Assembly (NCBI GenBank): GCA_963833985.1 | Contig: CAWIAD010000002.1 | Coordinates: forward strand, 4,704,001-4,768,000 | Direction of reading: 5' to 3' | DNA length: 64,000 bases | Origin: an uncultured Planctomycetaceae bacterium | Lineage (GTDB): Bacteria > Planctomycetota > Planctomycetia > Isosphaerales > Isosphaeraceae | In this document: positions 17,386 through 24,386 of the stretch, in pieces | How positions within the stretch are numbered: the first letter of the stretch is position 1 | Layout: each line of letters opens with the position of its first letter | Program-made: the position numbers and the translations under genes | The notes under the pieces: model-generated | Seen by the model: only the letters and a program-made list of their open reading frames with translations | Databases searched by the model: none | Told to the model about the DNA's origin: nothing

Positions 17386-17826
17386 ATGGCAACAGGGGAT
17401 GTCAGGGCGACGGACCTGCCGCCGGAGGTCGACAACTGGCTGGAGCTACTGAATGGTTTAGTAGATAACGTCAAGACATGGGCGGAGGCAGCCGGTTGGG
17501 AGACCCGCCTGACCGGCAGGGACGTTCACGAAAACGGTGTCGTCCGATACGAGGTCCCGGTCCTGGTGCTGAACCGCGACGAAGCCGAGGTCTCGCTGGT
17601 CCCCGTTGCCCGCAAGGTTCCCGGGGCCGATGGCCTGGTCGACTTCTATTTGATGCCAGACTTCGACGACGTGGCCAGCCTCTACCGGGAAACAGGCCAG
17701 TGGTTCTTTCACTACGCTTTCCACCCCGACCCGAGGGAGACCCATTCGGTGATCGAGACCGAACGGTTCCTCCTGGACGAAGCAAGCCTCATTCGCGTGC
17801 TGAACGACATCGCCGCCCATGCCTAA
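17386..17826 (+). CDS. Hypothetical protein, acidic, coupled to the downstream HEPN-like gene
   Basis: RBS GAGGAGG. The stop codon overlaps the next start (ATGCCTAA). No family motif recognised. Confidence 0.8.
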   Translation: MATGDVRATDLPPEVDNWLELLNGLVDNVKTWAEAAGWETRLTGRDVHENGVVRYEVPVLVLNRDEAEVSLVPVARKVPGADGLVDFYLMPDFDDVASLYRETGQWFFHYAFHPDPRETHSVIETERFLLDEASLIRVLNDIAAHA

Positions 17827-18301
17827 CCTCTACAGCGTGCGGTTCAAAATCGACGAGGCGTTCGCCGAGTACAAGGTTGCTTTGACGGCGCTGACCCGCT
17901 TCCAGGCGGGCGTCCAGAGCGCCCAGCCGGATTTCTCGTTGCCCAAAGGGACGCAGCCGCACCACCTCGACCGGGCTGTCGAGGAACTGGAAGGCACGTA
18001 CCTGATCCGGATGTGGGCTGTTTTCGAAGCGGCCTGGGTGTCGTTCTGGCGGCACCACTCCGGCCGTCTGGGCACAATCAAGGCGATGCATCTGATCCAG
18101 TGGGCGCAAGGTGTCGAGGAGGGCCACAAGGCTGCCGACGATGTCACGGACGACGTCGACCGGGTCCGCCTGTACCGGAACTTCCTGGTTCACGGCGATA
18201 ACCTGGCACCGCGCGTGGCTATCGGGGACGCCAAGAAGTACCTCAACAGGCACCTTGTCAAGCTACCCGACCACTGGCCCGGGGCGGACGACGACGACTG
18301 A
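17819..18301 (+). CDS. Putative HEPN-superfamily RNase
   Basis: Helical 160-aa protein with YLIRMWAVFE (conserved Glu helix) and RNFLVH (R-x4-H). Confidence 0.65.
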   Translation: MPNLYSVRFKIDEAFAEYKVALTALTRFQAGVQSAQPDFSLPKGTQPHHLDRAVEELEGTYLIRMWAVFEAAWVSFWRHHSGRLGTIKAMHLIQWAQGVEEGHKAADDVTDDVDRVRLYRNFLVHGDNLAPRVAIGDAKKYLNRHLVKLPDHWPGADDDD

Positions 18302-18391
18302 TCTCCCGGTTGACACACGTCAAGAGACGCAACCCTTCGCCCGCATTTCTCACTCATATCATTCGGACTGAGTTGAGGCAGTGCGGCAGAT

Positions 18392-18426
18392 GGGGTCTGG
18401 CAGATATGGTCTGACCCCGTGAAGCA
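18392..18426. repeat. REP-like element (family A), a direct copy of the 17083-17101 motif
   Basis: GGGGTC…GACCCC stem. GGTCTGACCCCGTGAAGCA matches GGTCTGACCCCGCAAAGCA at 17 of 19 positions. Confidence 0.7.
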
Positions 18427-18430
18427 TTAA

Positions 18431-18506
18431 TCTCCGCGTACCTGGCGGAGAAAGAACTTGTCCATGCGGAGGATAGGTGCTATTATGTCCGCAGAGAATG
18501 CGGAGA
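18431..18506 (+). promoter_or_regulatory. Sigma70 promoter of fic flanked by two palindromic operators
   Basis: -35 TTGTCC (18458-18463), 17-bp spacer, extended -10 TGcTATTAT (hexamer at 18481-18486). Operators are TCTCCGC-N7-GCGGAGA (18431-18451) and TGTCCGC-N7-GCGGAGA (18486-18506). Confidence 0.7.
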
Positions 18507-18512
18507 ATAGCG

Positions 18513-19637
18513 ATGTACATCCACCAAAGAGACGATTGGCCCAGGTTCCACTGGGATCCAGAAGGGCTGGCAAACCTGCTTGCGGCGGTTCGTCATCGCC
18601 AGGGCCGGCTCATCGGTCGGATGGAAGGGCTCGGCTTTCAACTCCGCGAGGAGGCGGTGTTGAGCACCCTGACGCAGGACGTCCTGAAATCGAGCGAGAT
18701 CGAAGGCGAAATCCTCGACGTCGAGCAGGTTCGCTCATCCCTCGCCCGCCGACTTGGACTCGATATTGGCGCACTGACGCCCGCCGATCGTCATGTCGAA
18801 GGCGTGGTCGAGTTGATGCTCGATGCCACCCGGCGATACGAAGAACCACTGAGCGAGGAACGTCTATGCGGCTGGCACGCCGCCCTCTTCCCGACCAGGC
18901 GCAGCGGGATGCAGAAAATCCGGGTCGGTGACTGGCGGGACGACGCTGCTGGCCCGATGCAGGTCGTCTCAGGCGCAATCGGCAAGGAACGGGTCCATTA
19001 CCAGGCGCCGCCAGCCGACCGGCTGTCGGCCGAGATGTCGCAGTTCCTGGAATGGTTCAATGACTCGGGGACGATCGACCCGGTCCTCAAAGCCGCCGAG
19101 GCTCATCTCTGGTTCGTCACCATTCACCCTTTCGACGACGGAAATGGGCGCATCGCCCGAGCCATCGCCGATCTGGCCCTGGCACGGTCGGAGCAAAGTC
19201 CGAATCGCTTCTACAGCATGTCTGCGCAGATCCGGCTGGAGCGAGGCGATTATTACGGCATCCTGGAACAGACCCAGAAAGGTTCGCTCGATATCACGGC
19301 GTGGATGCGGTGGTTCCTCGGCTGCCTCGATCGCGCATTCGACGGAGCGGAGGCCACGCTCGGCCACGTGCTCCGAAAAGCGCGGTTCTGGGAAGTTCAC
19401 GCCGGGGAATCGTTCAACGACCGGCAGCGGAAAATCGTCAATCGGCTGATGAACGGATTCGAGGGCAAGCTCACGTCGTCGAAGTGGGCAAAACTGGCCA
19501 GGTGCTCACAGGATACAGCCAGCCGCGATATCAACGACCTGATCAAACGCCGAGTGCTCGCGAAGAATGATGCCGGTGGCCGGAGCACCAGCTATTCGCT
19601 CATCGAGCCGGCCGCGAAGAGCGAACCAGGGCCATGA
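18513..19637 (+). CDS. Fic-family protein (N-terminal DUF4172-like region, C-terminal HTH)
   Basis: Catalytic HPFDDGNGRIAR. The N-terminus is YIHQRDDWPRF, with an SSEIEGE inhibitory-type motif. The C-terminus has SQDTASRDINDL…GGRSTSY. Confidence 0.95.
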   Translation: MYIHQRDDWPRFHWDPEGLANLLAAVRHRQGRLIGRMEGLGFQLREEAVLSTLTQDVLKSSEIEGEILDVEQVRSSLARRLGLDIGALTPADRHVEGVVELMLDATRRYEEPLSEERLCGWHAALFPTRRSGMQKIRVGDWRDDAAGPMQVVSGAIGKERVHYQAPPADRLSAEMSQFLEWFNDSGTIDPVLKAAEAHLWFVTIHPFDDGNGRIARAIADLALARSEQSPNRFYSMSAQIRLERGDYYGILEQTQKGSLDITAWMRWFLGCLDRAFDGAEATLGHVLRKARFWEVHAGESFNDRQRKIVNRLMNGFEGKLTSSKWAKLARCSQDTASRDINDLIKRRVLAKNDAGGRSTSYSLIEPAAKSEPGP

Positions 19638-20400
19638 TCACCGGAATGACATATGGGGCGTATGGGGTCCGGGCGGATCGGGTCCGGGGCGGATGCTCCC
19701 GCGGTTCATCGCGTGGTACACCAGACCGTCGTCGGTGGCACGAGGAAGACGTCTCATGATGCCCGTGTTACGGCGAGATGCGGGCTTGCGTCAAGAAAAA
19801 TGAACTGACACGAATTCCTCCCATGATCACCGGAATGACATATGGGGCGTATGGGGTCCGGGCGGATCGGGTCCGGGGCGGATGCTCCCGCGGTTCATCG
19901 CGTGGTACACCAGACCGTCGTCGGTGGCACGAGGAAGACGTCTCATGATGCCCGTGTTACGGCGAGATGCGGGCTTGCGTCAAGAAAAATGAACTGACAC
20001 GAATTCCTCCCCGGCGAGATGCGGGCTTGCGTCAAGAAAAATGAACTGACACGAATTCCTCCCCGTCAAGAAAAATGAACTGACACGAATTCCTCCGTGG
20101 GGCGTATGGGGTCCGGGCGGATCGGGTCCGGGGCGGATGCTCCCGCGGTTCATCGCGTGGTACACCAGACCGTCGTCGGTGGCACGAGGAAGACGTCTCA
20201 TGATGCCCGTGTTACGGCGAGATGCGGGCTTGCGTCAAGAAAAATGAACTGACACGAATTCCTCCCCGGCGAGATGCGGGCTTGCGTCAAGAAAAATGAA
20301 CTGACACGAATTCCTCCCCGTCAAGAAAAATGAACTGACACGAATTCCTCCGTCAAGAAAAATGAACTGACACGAATTCCTCCCGACACGAATTCCTCCC
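19632..20400. repeat. Nested tandem array with 8 full copies and 1 partial copy of GTCAAGAAAAATGAACTGACACGAATTCCTCC (REP-like family B)
   Basis: Copies start at 19790, 19979, 20031, 20065, 20234, 20286, 20320 and 20352, with a partial copy at 20385. Duplication periods are 189, 52, 34, 255, 32 and ~16 bp. Confidence 0.95.
19698..20201 (-). pseudogene. Three copies of a 5' fragment of a REP-associated tyrosine (Y1/HUH) transposase
   Basis: MRRLPRATDDGLVYHAMNRG starts at 19757, 19946 and 20201. It matches the typical RAYT N-terminus (MPRxxR…G.xYH.xNRG) and is truncated right after NRG. Confidence 0.7.
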
Positions 20401-20474
20401 GTTACGGCTAGGAAACGGCTCTGCACAAAGGGGATTATTTCCCCCTATCTTTCCTTGCCTAGGCTCTGGCGGCC

Positions 20475-20515
20475 TTGTCAAAGGCCCCGGAGCATGTTAG
20501 CATTGAATTCGATGC
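20475..20515 (+). promoter_or_regulatory. TA operon promoter with an overlapping palindromic operator
   Basis: -35 TTGTCA (20475-20480), 17-bp spacer, -10 TAGCAT (20498-20503) with an upstream TG. The palindrome GCATTGAATTCGATGC (20500-20515) matches at 14 of 16 positions. Confidence 0.65.
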
Positions 20516-20545
20516 GTTGACGATGCGACTTAGCAGAAGGTATTT

Positions 20546-20842
20546 ATGGACATTGACCGCGACATTCATCCACTCACCGATTTCAAGCGAAACACCTCCC
20601 ATTTCGTTTCACAACTGAAGGAAACCGGCCAACCCCTCGTCCTCACCATCAACGGCAAGGCGGAGCTGGTCGTGCAGGATGCCGCTTCCTATCAAAAATT
20701 GGCTGACCTCGCCGAGCGGCTGGAGACCATCCAGGCCGTCAAAGACAGCCTGGCCTCCATTGACCGGGGTGAAGGCACAGCGATGGACGAAGTATTCGAC
20801 GCACTGGAGAAGCGGATCAGACAGCCAAAGGCCCGTCCGTGA
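20546..20842 (+). CDS. Phd/YefM-family antitoxin
   Basis: IHPLTDFKRNT…LKETGQPLVLTINGKAELVVQDAASYQ. Confidence 0.9.
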   Translation: MDIDRDIHPLTDFKRNTSHFVSQLKETGQPLVLTINGKAELVVQDAASYQKLADLAERLETIQAVKDSLASIDRGEGTAMDEVFDALEKRIRQPKARP

Positions 20843-21189
20843 GCTTCCGCGTCGTCGTCCAGCCGCGTGCGGAAAAGGACCTACTCGACGCCGCCAGTTT
20901 CCTGCTCGACCGCAGCAAGTGATCGACCATCGCTCTTCGGTGGTAACGCGGCATCCGGGGGAAAATCAACACTCTTAAGACCAGCCCGCACCGCTGCCCG
21001 GTCGATCCCGACTCGGCGGCCTACGGCTCAGAGGTTCGTGTGCCGCTCTACGGCAAACGGCAAGGCGTCTATCGCGTTCTCTTCACGATACGTGGCAACA
21101 CCGTCTTTGTCCTGACCGTGCGGCATTCAGCCCAGCGTCGCCTTACAGACGACATCGACCAGGACGACGAGCAAGGCACGCCGCATTGA
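20839..21189 (+). pseudogene. ParE/RelE-family toxin pseudogene (two in-frame stops)
   Basis: GTGA overlap with the antitoxin. It reads MSFRVVVQPRAEKDL…SK*STIALRW*RGIRGKINTLKTSPHRCP…GVYRVLFTIRGNTVFVLTVRHSA, with stops at 20920-20922 (TGA) and 20944-20946 (TAA). Confidence 0.85.
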
Positions 21190-21504
21190 CGTAGGGGCTC
21201 TCACTGAGCAGTCAACGGACTGACTCTCCCCTAGCAGAACCCGCTTCTGCCATTGCTGGCACCCCGCCATCCAGGCGGCCGCGTGCTCACGGGGTACGCT
21301 TCGCTTCCGTCCCTGCGGGACCGGCTACGCCGCCCTTCCGCCCGCTGGTGCGTGGTCGTTCACCGGCGACCGCCACGCCCGGCCCCGGCGTACCGTGGCC
21401 GTTCATGCCGGCCGCTTATCGGTTCACTGAAGGAAGCGTGTCGTTTTTTGCTCGTCCCGGCCCCATTGAACATGGGGGGCCGGTCCGGCAAAGAGGGAAA
21501 TTGG

Positions 21505-23520
21505 GCCGGGTCGCCCTGGGGGATTGCTCCCCCGGGGCTCCCACAGATCCAGACGTGCGGATTTCCCGCATCTGGCTCGTCACCTCATGTCGCTGCGCGG
21601 CCCAGCAGACTGTGAACCACACGGGCCGGGGGCAGGCAGTATTGCCGTTCCAAGCGCACGAAGTCCGACCACGGTAGCGGTTTCCCCCGGCGACGCCGGG
21701 ACAGCCATCGTTTCCAGATCGCTCGCGCTCCCCGAAGGAAGTTTTGGAGACTCGCAAAGTTACCGATGATCCCGTAGTACCCGTAGTGGCCTTGCAGCTT
21801 CTGTTTGAGTGTCTGGTGCTGAACCGGAATCGGTTGATGCCGATTGACTCGGCACCACTCCGACAACGCTTGAAACGCTCGCTTGAGTCGGTTCCTCGCC
21901 GTCTTGCGCTTGATCACCCAGCCGCCTTTCCGACTTCGACCCCAGTAATGGGTGAAGCCCAGGAAGTCGAATGTCTTGGGCAAGGAGGATTCTCCTGCCT
22001 TCGTTTCGGAGTCGTCAGGATCATCCGGGTGGAACCGAACGAGCCGTGTCTTCTCCGGGTGAGCGGTCAAGCCGTACTTGCTCATCCGCTTGGGTAACAC
22101 GTCCATGATTCGCCGGGCGTCGTCTTCTCGGACTGTCCCGATCACGAAGTCGTCCGCATAGCGGATCACGAAAGCCTCCCCCTTCAGACGAGGTCGAACC
22201 TCCTGGTCGAACCATTCGTCGAGCACGTAGTGCAAGAACAGATTCGAAATCAAGGGGCTGAGAACCCCGCCTTGTGGCGCACCGTGTTCGGGAGTCGTGT
22301 GGACTCCGTCCTCCAGCACTCCAGCATTGAGCCATTTACCGATCAATCGCAGGATCACACCATCGCGCACCCGTCGCTTGAGGAACTCCCGTAGATGGCC
22401 ATGGTCAATCGTGTCGAAAAACTTTCGAAGATCAACGTCCACGATCCAGCGGCATCCCAGGTTCATCGCCCGCTTCCACAGAGAATCCAGGGCTCCGTGA
22501 GCGCCCCGTCCGGGACGGAAGCCGTGTGAGGCGTCCAAGAAGTCCGCCTCGTACACCGGCTCCAACACCATCAGGACCGCACGCTGGAGGATCTTGTCCT
22601 CGAACGTGGGAATCCCCAGCGGGCGGGTCTCGCCAGGCGAGCCTGCCTTGGGAATATTCACTCGTCGCACGGGCGGGGCCACGTACGTGCCGGACTTCGC
22701 GCGGTTGAGGAGGTCCTGAAGGTTGCCCTTCAGGTTGGTCTCGTAATCCTCCGCGGTCTGTCCGTCCACGCCGACGGCTCCATCCTTGCGGGTTAGAGCA
22801 TAGGCCTTGCGTAGCCAGAGGATGTCGATGTGATGCGCCAGGTTCGTGAAGGACATGTCCGGAGCGTTCCTGGCGAGTTCCGCGATCCGTTGTTGTTTTG
22901 TGTACACGGTCTCAGGTCTCGGCGTACCTGGCATGTTTCCCTCCAACGGTTCATGAGACGGCGTCCCCTTCCCTCCCCGGGGTCCATTCGGGCTAGTTCC
23001 CCCGGTTCCTCGGTACTATGAGACGCTCCGACTCCCTGCCGTCCATCTCGCCGCACTTCGTTTCCTTCGCTTGGCGATACCATCGTTTCGTCCCCGGTTC
23101 GTCCCCACAGCTTGGGACCTAGCTATGGATCATCCTGGAGTTGGTAAGCCGGGCTCCCGCCGGCACTTTACGATGGAGACGACAGGGTCTCCCAAGTTCC
23201 CAGAGGATCCCTTGTGATCATTCGCCCTGTTCTCCGACCCCGGCGTGACCAGGCAGGCTGAGTGGACCACGGGTTAGTTGCCTGGCGCGGCCCCCGCGTC
23301 TGACAAGGACGAGGGCTCACCACGAGGAGATTTCGGGGCTCAATCGCACGGCGTTTGATCTGGCTGTCTACGCTTCGCAGGGGTGGTTGCCCACCACCAC
23401 GCAAGACTCGCTTCCGGCTGCTGGTCCAGCTCTGCCGGACGGGATTGGCTACCCGCAGGGTTCCCTACGAAAGGGTTCAAGTTTGTGGCTATCCTCCCTT
23501 CCTGAGCTTCCTTGGCGCAA
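21505..23520 (-). mobile_element. Complete group II intron (IIB-like ribozyme, 2016 nt)
   Basis: The 5' end is TTGCGCC at 23520. Domain V is GAGCCAGATGCGGGAAATCCGCACGTCTGGATC (21578-21546). Domain VI has a bulged A and ends CGACCCGGC at 21505. The EBS1 loop is at 23300-23305. Removing the element restores a palindrome. Confidence 0.9.
21585..22946 (-). CDS. ltrA: Group II intron reverse transcriptase/maturase (no endonuclease domain)
   Basis: GVDG, IPK…RPLGIPTFEDKILQ, SHGFRPGR, PQGGVLSPLISNLFLH, RYADDF, FDFLGF, X-domain LQGHYGYY. 453 aa with no HNH. Confidence 0.97.
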   Translation of the reverse strand: MEGNMPGTPRPETVYTKQQRIAELARNAPDMSFTNLAHHIDILWLRKAYALTRKDGAVGVDGQTAEDYETNLKGNLQDLLNRAKSGTYVAPPVRRVNIPKAGSPGETRPLGIPTFEDKILQRAVLMVLEPVYEADFLDASHGFRPGRGAHGALDSLWKRAMNLGCRWIVDVDLRKFFDTIDHGHLREFLKRRVRDGVILRLIGKWLNAGVLEDGVHTTPEHGAPQGGVLSPLISNLFLHYVLDEWFDQEVRPRLKGEAFVIRYADDFVIGTVREDDARRIMDVLPKRMSKYGLTAHPEKTRLVRFHPDDPDDSETKAGESSLPKTFDFLGFTHYWGRSRKGGWVIKRKTARNRLKRAFQALSEWCRVNRHQPIPVQHQTLKQKLQGHYGYYGIIGNFASLQNFLRGARAIWKRWLSRRRRGKPLPWSDFVRLERQYCLPPARVVHSLLGRAAT

Positions 23521-23580
23521 TGTCAGTTCACTTTTCGTAGGATAAATGAACTGACACCGGTTTCTTGACACCGGTTTCTT
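23521..23580. repeat. REP-like inverted doublet (family B), left arm cut by the intron, with a 14-bp end duplication
   Basis: TGTCAGTTCA-N16-TGAACTGACACCGGTTTCT is followed by a second TGACACCGGTTTCT. Confidence 0.85.
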
Positions 23581-23624
23581 GCGGCGCAACGCGAATGAGT
23601 CGGGTTCTCCGGAGACGGGCAAAC

Positions 23625-24077
23625 TCACTGGGGATAGATGACGGACAGACCTTGTAGCCTGGCGACTTCGCAGAGCCTTTCGTCGGCACATACGAAGCAA
23701 TCCATCGCTACGGGATCCCGGATCGACAACGCCACGGCAAGCTGTATCGCGTCAAGCGAATGAATCTGTCTCACTTTCCCATGAACGGCGATCAATTCGC
23801 CCGCCGACTCAAAGTGCGAGTTGAGTATCCGGATGGGCACGAACACGCGGTCTCGGATATCGGCGAAAAACCGCGCCGCCAGCCGATCGAATTCCGTGTC
23901 GGAAATCAGTCCAGTCCGTACCTTCTTCGCGAAGACCGAGAGCACCTCGGTCAGCGTCAACCTTGAGCCTGAGTAGGTTGATGTGGGTTCCCGGAGCAAT
24001 TGAGCCACCGTGTGTGATCCCGGCTCATCGTGGTACCGCTTCACCACAGCGCTCGCGTCGAAGAAGAAATCTGGCAT
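23625..24077 (-). CDS. vapC: VapC/PIN-domain toxin
   Basis: FFDASAVVKRY…E…LTEV…SLDAIQLAVA…FVCADERL, the acidic PIN motifs. Confidence 0.92.
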   Translation of the reverse strand: MPDFFFDASAVVKRYHDEPGSHTVAQLLREPTSTYSGSRLTLTEVLSVFAKKVRTGLISDTEFDRLAARFFADIRDRVFVPIRILNSHFESAGELIAVHGKVRQIHSLDAIQLAVALSIRDPVAMDCFVCADERLCEVARLQGLSVIYPQ

Positions 24078-24386
24078 CTACGATCGGTACTCTCTCTCTT
24101 CGATGACAGCCTGGCTCATTGAACCGGGGATCTTCGAGAGCATTCGGCGGACTTCCTCGACCGAGGGTATCTCCCGGCCTTCCAGTTCGCGAGTGCAATA
24201 GGCTATGGCCTCGTGATCCACGGCGGCTTTCGATTCGGATCCCAAGCCCGTGTCAGTTCCGCGCTGATCCTCCCGGCAAAAACGGCGCAAGGCTTCTTGA
24301 AGCACAGCCTCTTCAGTGGGGAAATCGCCGCTCTGAACCTTGCGGCGAACAAATTCCCGTAGCTCGATGGTCAAGGTCACATCCAC
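24078..24386 (-). CDS. Ribbon-helix-helix antitoxin (ParD/CC2985-like N-terminus)
   Basis: VTLTIELREFVRRKVQSGDFPTEEAVLQEALR. The stop abuts the vapC start. Confidence 0.8.
   Translation of the reverse strand: MDVTLTIELREFVRRKVQSGDFPTEEAVLQEALRRFCREDQRGTDTGLGSESKAAVDHEAIAYCTRELEGREIPSVEEVRRMLSKIPGSMSQAVIEEREYRS

Follow-up and report, generated by a model that had tools for sequence, protein, structure and literature searches.

A group II intron lineage whose guides follow the terminal inverted repeats of Y1 transposase elements

We analysed a 64,000-nt stretch, here called the window, from an uncultured Planctomycetaceae bacterium of the family Isosphaeraceae (assembly GCA_963833985.1, contig CAWIAD010000002.1, positions 4,704,001 to 4,768,000), in which a group II intron interrupts an inverted repeat. 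Our preferred explanation, which we consider likely, is that this endonuclease-less, class E/F intron and its relatives retrohome by ordinary IIB rules into the terminal inverted repeats (TIRs) of Y1 transposase elements, or into gene-less TIR dimers and arrays. As judged by sequence comparison, the intron target in these genomes is almost always a TIR of subclass-2.1 Y1 elements or a gene-less derivative. Coordinates of the features are collected in Table 1.

Target repeat and guide co-variation

Excising 21505-23520 rejoins two 17-nt arms, which match at 15 of 17 positions and are separated by a 16-nt spacer. On the intron strand the 5′ exon ends in GTGAACTGACA and the 3′ exon opens with CC. 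The initial annotation had an intron lying precisely within this inverted repeat, and all of its coordinates check, but the repeat that it called a repetitive extragenic palindromic (REP) sequence is a TIR dimer of a TIRYT-type element and not a GTAG REP. The site occupied by the intron consists of two TIRs head to head, with no gene. The motif TGAACTGACAC occurs in the window eight times at 19801-20363, within a tandem array, and once at 23547 in the opposite arm, as had been counted before; genome-wide there are 51 occurrences in 10.2 Mb, in clusters. Two of these clusters flank PF01797 genes (loci L002 and L004) on both sides in inverted orientation, and the same arrangement is seen in relatives. 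Over 139 nt the array in the window shares ~93% identity with the intact element L004 (G000:C2:2427284, G000 being the genome of the window). The L002 and L004 proteins are ~245 aa long with NHFH, WQ and YIEANP motifs, which fits TnpA-Y1 subclass 2.1, a group equated by PMC6006769 with the TIRYTs of PMC3733652.

The comparison covered 48 Y1 genes, taken from G000 and ten relatives. The core NTG[AT]C[AC]^C[CT] lies upstream of 35 of them, in 31 cases at 39-46 nt from the inferred start; 11 of 56 Y1 loci, mostly fragments, were left unused. The core variants are CTGACA (12 genes), ATGTCC (7), GTGTCC (6), CTGACC (5) and five singletons that include TTGACA. Because the linked genes carry subclass-2.1 motifs and the core lies upstream of Y1 genes, the target is, on comparative grounds, the TIR of subclass-2.1 Y1 elements (TIRYT/TIRtron), together with its dimer and array derivatives. 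A canonical GTAG REP or REPIN was defined by a GT[AG]G foot, a self-palindromic unit and a REP-associated tyrosine transposase (RAYT) of subclasses 2.2, 2.4, 2.5 or 2.7. It was rejected as the target: the unit has no GTAG foot, an intrinsic hairpin is not general, and the linked genes have the subclass-2.1 motifs. TIRYT genes are described as flanked by TIRs with a GGGGWSAS motif and not by REP hairpins (PMC3733652). The local Y1 genes resemble published TIRYTs and TIRtrons (PMC3733652, PMC6006769) in having long flanking TIRs with a GGGGWSAS-like motif, in the occurrence of TIRs as dimers and clusters, and in the motifs NH[FV]H, WQ and YIE[AL]NP of a ~240-aa protein; they differ in that the local core is frequently GGTGTCAG in place of GGGGWSAS. 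We infer that the Y1 enzyme moves these elements, since G000 has two copies, 94% identical, at separate loci and G009 has many. A degenerate TIR pattern applied to five genomes found arrays in G115 only, the pattern being too strict for copy counts.

Two observations on the TIRs themselves are added here. Nested tandem copies of TIR ends, varying in length and anchored on the TIR, occur in several genomes (window 19634-20400 and the flanks of L002, L004, L196 and L201), and at L004 the tandem amplification is later than an intron insertion. Upstream TIRs of Y1 genes usually have TTGAC at their inner end, read on the strand of the gene; it precedes the start by ~25-30 nt and resembles a -35 box.

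Homologues at E 1e-100 or better were found in 39 of 121 genomes of the family. From 77 loci and 40 fetched regions we kept 78 junctions in 32 genomes, dropping rows L121, L129 and L150 (the same sites as L056, L058 and L110); distant relatives, with intron-encoded protein (IEP) identity of ~58% or less, stand outside the junction counts, and ten of them served as outgroups. In 61 of 74 junctions exon-binding site 1 (EBS1) pairs with the 5′ exon over its six terminal bases, and in 10 more over five of the six, G-U pairs counted. In a permutation over the 29 distinct pairs the observed value was 5.34, compared with 3.42 ± 0.20 and a maximum of 4.24. EBS3 pairs with exon position +1 in 63 of 65 junctions of this genomic set. 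An independent metagenome set of 80 loci with 60 domain I matches behaves alike (EBS1 at 5/6 or better in 42 of 45 readable junctions, EBS3 pairing with +1 in 38 of 41). Pairing of EBS1 with positions -6 to -1 and of EBS3 with +1 is thus shown by co-variation, which backs the match of UGUCAG with intron-binding site 1 (IBS1) CTGACA that had been proposed for the window intron.

The guides change with the TIRs. TIR-core guides are found in 51 of 78 introns from genomes and 32 of 60 from metagenomes, and in 35 of the 48 genome-guide lineages; the guide variants form the same set as the core variants of the Y1 genes; G120, which holds five intron copies, has a TTGACA core and EBS1 UGUCAA. TIRs are targeted in 27 of the 32 genomes, by at least five guide variants, and the insertion register is constant, just before the CC of the core. 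With the guide-paired bases excluded, identity of the flanks to real TIRs reaches at least 11/19 in 28 of 41 TIR-guide junctions and 1 of 22 others (metagenome set, 12 of 19 and 0 of 12), while 421 of 6,995 control sites reach this mark. TIRs of the same genome fit the junctions better than those of other genomes (16.4 vs 14.7 ± 0.6, 9 genomes, p 0.007; the genomes are kin, so that p values here are overstated). A Y1 coding match is found 46-81 nt away from eight junctions, of which seven are upstream and one is downstream, compared with 0 of 34 non-TIR-guide junctions; an adjacent Y1 gene is present in only 7 of the 64 TIR-guide junctions that have at least 150 nt of exon. Both sister subclades of a protein tree, whose members are 62-85% identical to the window protein, contain TIR guides throughout. 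Read by eye, the tree shows several switches between core variants and some five departures to other targets, one of them an IS3 site. The earlier proposal of a IIB-like, endonuclease-less intron specialised on a multicopy repeat associated with a Y1 transposase has therefore held: EBS1 co-varies and most relatives lie in such repeats. The homologue survey gave neither a majority of relatives at non-repeat sites nor other junctions.

A sublineage with TGACAC guides (L123, L264, L268-L287), and L106, mostly with TAGCG starts, have guides complementary to the other strand of the TIR core (GTGTCA^G). This suggests a strand flip on the TIR, in six cases, of which only some match TIR flanks. In tests of opposite-strand TIR fit over 35 rows, L106 (p 0.007) and L287 were suggestive, L123, L264 and L283 were not, and L044 gave p 0.013.

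Table 1. Features of the intron and its target repeat in the window
Feature	Position	Strand	Remarks
Group II intron, 2,016 nt, class E/F-like IIB	21505..23520	-	Starts TTGCG, ends ACCCGGC
Intron-encoded reverse transcriptase/maturase, 453 aa	21585..22946	-	YADD at residue 263
EBS1 UGUCAG	23300..23305	-	Pairs with IBS1 CTGACA; co-variation in homologues
EBS3 G	23235	-	Pairs with 3′ exon +1 (C at 21504); overlooked in the initial annotation
Alpha-prime, terminal loop of Id3 stem-loop	23264..23269	-	Partner alpha at 23422-23427
Domain 5, AGC triad, 5-nt loop	21545..21578	-	Rfam match and fold
Domain 6	21508..21542	-	Branch A inferred at 21511
Interrupted TIR arm, inner part	23521..23530	-	Includes IBS1 at 23521-23526
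Interrupted TIR arm, outer part (3′ exon)	21498..21504	-	
Opposite, empty arm of gene-less TIR dimer	23547..23563	+	Spacer 23531-23546; partial tandem copy follows
Tandem array, upstream end of subclass-2.1 Y1 element	19634..20400	.	8 TIR copies, 3 transposase 5′-end copies (- strand)

Intron class and known systems

The Rfam Intron_gpII match terminates exactly at 21505 and the group-II-D1D4-6 match spans 23448-23228 (RF00029, 42.4 bits; RF02005, 113 bits); domain 5/6 and domain I folds are present. The boundaries are independently backed by homologues that begin and finish at the same motifs. Within the core set, both introns that start with GTGCG finish in AC, and those that start with T finish in GC. 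The 453-aa IEP scores 340.6 bits against TIGR04416 (cut-off 300); a domain scan of it returned RVT_1 and a weak GIIM alone, with no endonuclease domain detected. The closest homologues are in records of Isosphaeraceae or Planctomycetota.

The intron has the IIB traits of a 6-bp EBS1-IBS1 pairing and an EBS3-IBS3 pairing, and the class E/F (IIE, IIF) traits of alpha-prime at the terminus of the Id3 stem-loop, a 5-nt domain 5 loop and no endonuclease domain; alpha-prime in a terminal loop and the 5-nt loop are given as IIE/IIF traits in PMC3753933. A disrupted intron on pRmeGR4b, which we take as the class E intron S.me.I4 described in PMC5894124, matches D1D4-6 as the window intron does, while RmInt1 matches D1D4-2. 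The reverse transcriptase (RT) core of the window IEP is 47% identical to that of the S.me.I4 candidate, the closest labelled protein, and 39-43% to others. In a query-anchored class tree with no class F reference, the S.me.I4 candidate and the window IEP do not nest with support; the query-anchored alignment distorts the rooting, so that only identities and Rfam families were used for class. On these, the intron appears to be class E/F-like IIB. Class C (IIC) was rejected on the 6-bp EBS1 and on the 38 of 44 targets without a strong hairpin. Class C introns share with the window family the lack of an endonuclease and a recurring non-coding target (terminators, attC sites), but have a 3-4 bp EBS1 after a stem-loop (PMC7923331), whereas the family here has a 6-bp EBS1, a IIB domain I and no hairpin requirement. 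The class E/F introns S.me.I4, Cl.be.I2 and Pe.th.I2 (PMC3753933, PMC5894124) have in common with ours the terminal-loop alpha-prime, the 5-nt domain 5 loop and the absent endonuclease; the boundaries here are UUGCG...GC, and the accessible text of those two papers does not mention repeat targeting.

The closest parallel in target choice is RmInt2 of Sinorhizobium meliloti GR4, a class D IIB intron (PMC4615759). Like the window family it is endonuclease-less. It has relaxed EBS2 pairing and a distal 5′ exon read by the protein, both of which are proposed for the window family. All of its copies lie within the inverted repeats of ISRm17, with two target orientations per element, as here. The differences are that RmInt2 is class D and known from one strain and one insertion sequence (IS), RmInt1 belonging to Rfam D1D4-2 and the RT cores being 39-40% identical, whereas the targets here are TIRs of HUH Y1 elements over the 27 genomes and at least five guide variants given above. 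The suggestion that such repeats serve an intron as a safe harbour is therefore not new in kind. The REP-targeting elements IS1397, IS621 and ISPpu9 (PMC1525189) likewise land in another element's small repeats, but these are DNA transposases on GTAG REPs, in contrast to an RNA-guided retroelement on Y1 TIRs. The same paper tabulates two of nine Pseudomonas putida group II introns as REP-associated, and Thermosynechococcus introns are a published case of diverging guides and of insertion into mobile elements (PMC2882425). A literature search, with most subscription papers and supplements outside it, found no link between group II introns and TIRYT or RAYT repeats, and the word 'intron' is absent from the main text of PMC3733652. 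Homing into other elements' inverted repeats is thus known; what is distinctive here, and well supported by the comparisons, is the apparent family-wide tracking of Y1 TIRs by the guide.

The family amounts to a natural retargeting experiment, with one lineage, more than 130 junctions and a six-base guide that shifts with the variants of one target class. It yields rules of target choice for class E/F introns; the data reported for such introns in the accessible literature concern self-splicing only. It also connects group II introns with the subclass-2.1 Y1 elements, which form the second-largest TnpA-Y1 group and whose ends and activity are undefined (PMC6006769). Intron junctions mark the TIRs of these elements at one fixed register.

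Homing and rival explanations

In the proposed mechanism, EBS1 on -6 to -1 and EBS3 on +1 would select the TIR core, and, by analogy with RmInt1 and RmInt2 (PMC5894124, PMC4615759), an upstream A-tract would be read by the protein, EBS2 would be relaxed and priming would be on the lagging strand. At positions -13 to -16 the mean is 2.5 A of 4 in TIR targets and 2.4 in non-TIR targets, compared with a background of 0.7. The motif CTGACAC has 617 sites in G000, 52 in TIRs and 565 outside, yet among its 46 sites with three or more A at -16 to -13, 40 are TIRs. With this preference, EBS1/EBS3 and the upstream A-tract would already pick out TIRs at most such sites. In the EBS2 region, as placed by alignment, pairing gives a signal in non-TIR lineages (p 0.0008, 10 groups) but not in TIR lineages (p 0.12, 29 groups). 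The spread and tandem amplification of Y1 elements would renew the TIRs. TIRs are non-coding and harmless, occur in both orientations and are renewed in this way, and for these reasons selection may have kept TIRs as the target of the lineage while EBS1 switched several times; now and then the lineage has escaped to IS genes and other repeats. Splicing and retrohoming activity of the family are indicated indirectly, by precise insertions and multi-copy relatives.

Besides the kinship of the genomes and the placement of EBS2, several points weigh against this explanation. Other guides are carried by 24 of the 78 genomic introns (three of the 24 being decayed TIR guides) and by 21 of the 60 metagenomic ones, so that roughly a quarter to a third of the relatives are on other targets. 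Thirteen of 41 TIR-guide junctions fall below 11/19 flank identity, and some TIR-guide insertions (L116, L138, L145, L147) lie inside open reading frames (ORFs). Since the A-tract is common to non-TIR targets, the TIR score in part reflects a lineage-wide preference and is inflated; nor is the tract absolute, with 0-1 A in 13 of 51 TIR-guide exons. In G000 the GC skew shows no clear origin and so is uninformative for replication-strand bias. The class can be narrowed to E/F and no further. When sequencing runs were searched for the words of the region, the best run reached 0.12 and none reached half.

The cleavage chemistry of HUH enzymes is established, and an intron without its own endonuclease could exploit DNA opened or nicked by the transposase at an element end, an explanation that we consider unlikely. 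Cutting of the left end on the sense strand of the gene would give the flank an inward-pointing 3′-OH, ~6-11 nt beyond the insertion site, and TIR conservation stops ~6-11 nt beyond that site; the geometry is that of the +9/+10 cut by introns with their own endonuclease (PMC4424553). The upstream TIR, facing outwards, is the one used in seven of the eight gene-adjacent insertions, but this 7:1 ratio is not significant (two-sided binomial ~0.07) and is biased because N-terminal fragments are easier to detect. Gene-less TIRs hold most of the insertions, as the adjacent-gene count shows, sister lineages with the same protein architecture target IS genes and other repeats, and the cut position of these transposases is an assumption of the model. 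An extended form adds a long-lived hyperparasitic coupling, in which the lineage tracks HUH Y1 ends family-wide, a transposase nick ~10 nt outside the site primes reverse transcription, and tandem amplification and deletion at TIR ends erase introns to leave stubs of 20-35 nt; taken jointly, this is improbable. If a transposase nick does prime reverse transcription, it would explain in a new way how introns that lack an endonuclease complete homing.

Guidance by a hairpin in the style of class C, with the TIR dimer extruding as a stem-loop recognised by the intron particle, is very unlikely. Six targets, the window site among them, fold at -14 kcal/mol or lower, and more dimers are seen in metagenome exons, but the other 38 of 44 TIR-type targets have no such hairpin, insertion is within a stem arm and not after a stem, EBS1 is a full 6-mer and a small hairpin intrinsic to the TIR is not general. 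The initial annotation had raised a possible use of hairpin single-stranded DNA; a need for it is not supported by these folds or by the use of single TIRs beside a gene. A long hairpin as a general requirement was accordingly rejected. A small hairpin displaying IBS1 in each TIR was also rejected, with junctions at 2.88 vs a background of 2.51 (permutation p 0.03, kinship ignored) and TIR flanks at p 0.54, and a complementarity of 9-10 nt between the dimer spacer and the intron 5′ region is lost in four related dimers and was treated as chance. The junction 12-mer is locally repeated at 11 of 44 TIR-guide sites, 4 of 19 other sites and 5 of 300 controls, and does not separate the first two groups.

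Survivorship probably contributes but would be insufficient alone. It would have the intron insert at any 7-nt match, with insertions in TIRs merely escaping purging, and as the sole explanation it is highly improbable. Some insertions are in genes with a guide match alone (L116, L138, L147), and 565 of the 617 CTGACAC sites are outside TIRs; it leaves unexplained the repeated change of EBS1 among exactly the TIR core variants, matching the host's own TIRs, and the A-tract common to non-TIR targets.

Other introns and neighbouring genes

Mapping of further copies in G000, which the initial annotation had proposed, gave the window intron as the sole full copy, stubs of 20-35 nt at two TIR loci and one ORF-less relative. 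A second TIR dimer, at C2:2303416, has a ~20-nt 5′ intron stub at the same register, and L004 bears, in its downstream TIR array, a domain 6 stub that runs into the expected 3′ exon and has been amplified three times. An intron or stub is thus present at three of nine loci of this TIR family. Because the stubs at C2:2303416 and L004 are unlike the window intron, the three loci were probably hit independently, by apparently different family members. The ORF-less relative (C2:1024209-1025004, 796 nt) belongs to the lineage of the window intron, has EBS1 GGACAC at GTGTCC^C and occupies a different dispersed palindromic repeat, on the opposite strand to a second intron family found there.

This second, unrelated family has 12-13 loci in G000 (e.g. 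C2:1391320, C1:773979), starts with GTGCG and has an IEP 36-39% identical; most copies carry a ~2 kb insertion in the ORF. Its 5′ junctions match GGGACACGATTCC-like exons in 11 of 12 cases, in the one dispersed palindromic repeat, of which there are 37 copies in G000 and others in three further genomes of the genus; no Y1 gene was found linked to this repeat.

Some relatives of the window intron are rearranged. In a Bryobacterales genome (L089-L103) a multi-copy relative is present as introns in head-to-tail and nested arrangement; its 5′ end carries a short second intron. An insertion of ~2 kb interrupts many relatives (L066, L110, L120, L126, L130, L147 and L151) at a near-constant position, either within domain I or close to IEP residue 226-231. 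At L070 the upstream end of a Y1 element replaces the 5′ part of the intron, its TIR abutting domain I, which is consistent with rearrangement at a TIR end.

The intron in the window lies within an island of toxin-antitoxin-type genes (17386-24386), with a Fic/DUF4172 gene at 18477-19637, a Phd antitoxin at 20546-20842, a broken ParE-like gene at 20839-21189 and a PIN gene at 23625-24077 with a small partner.

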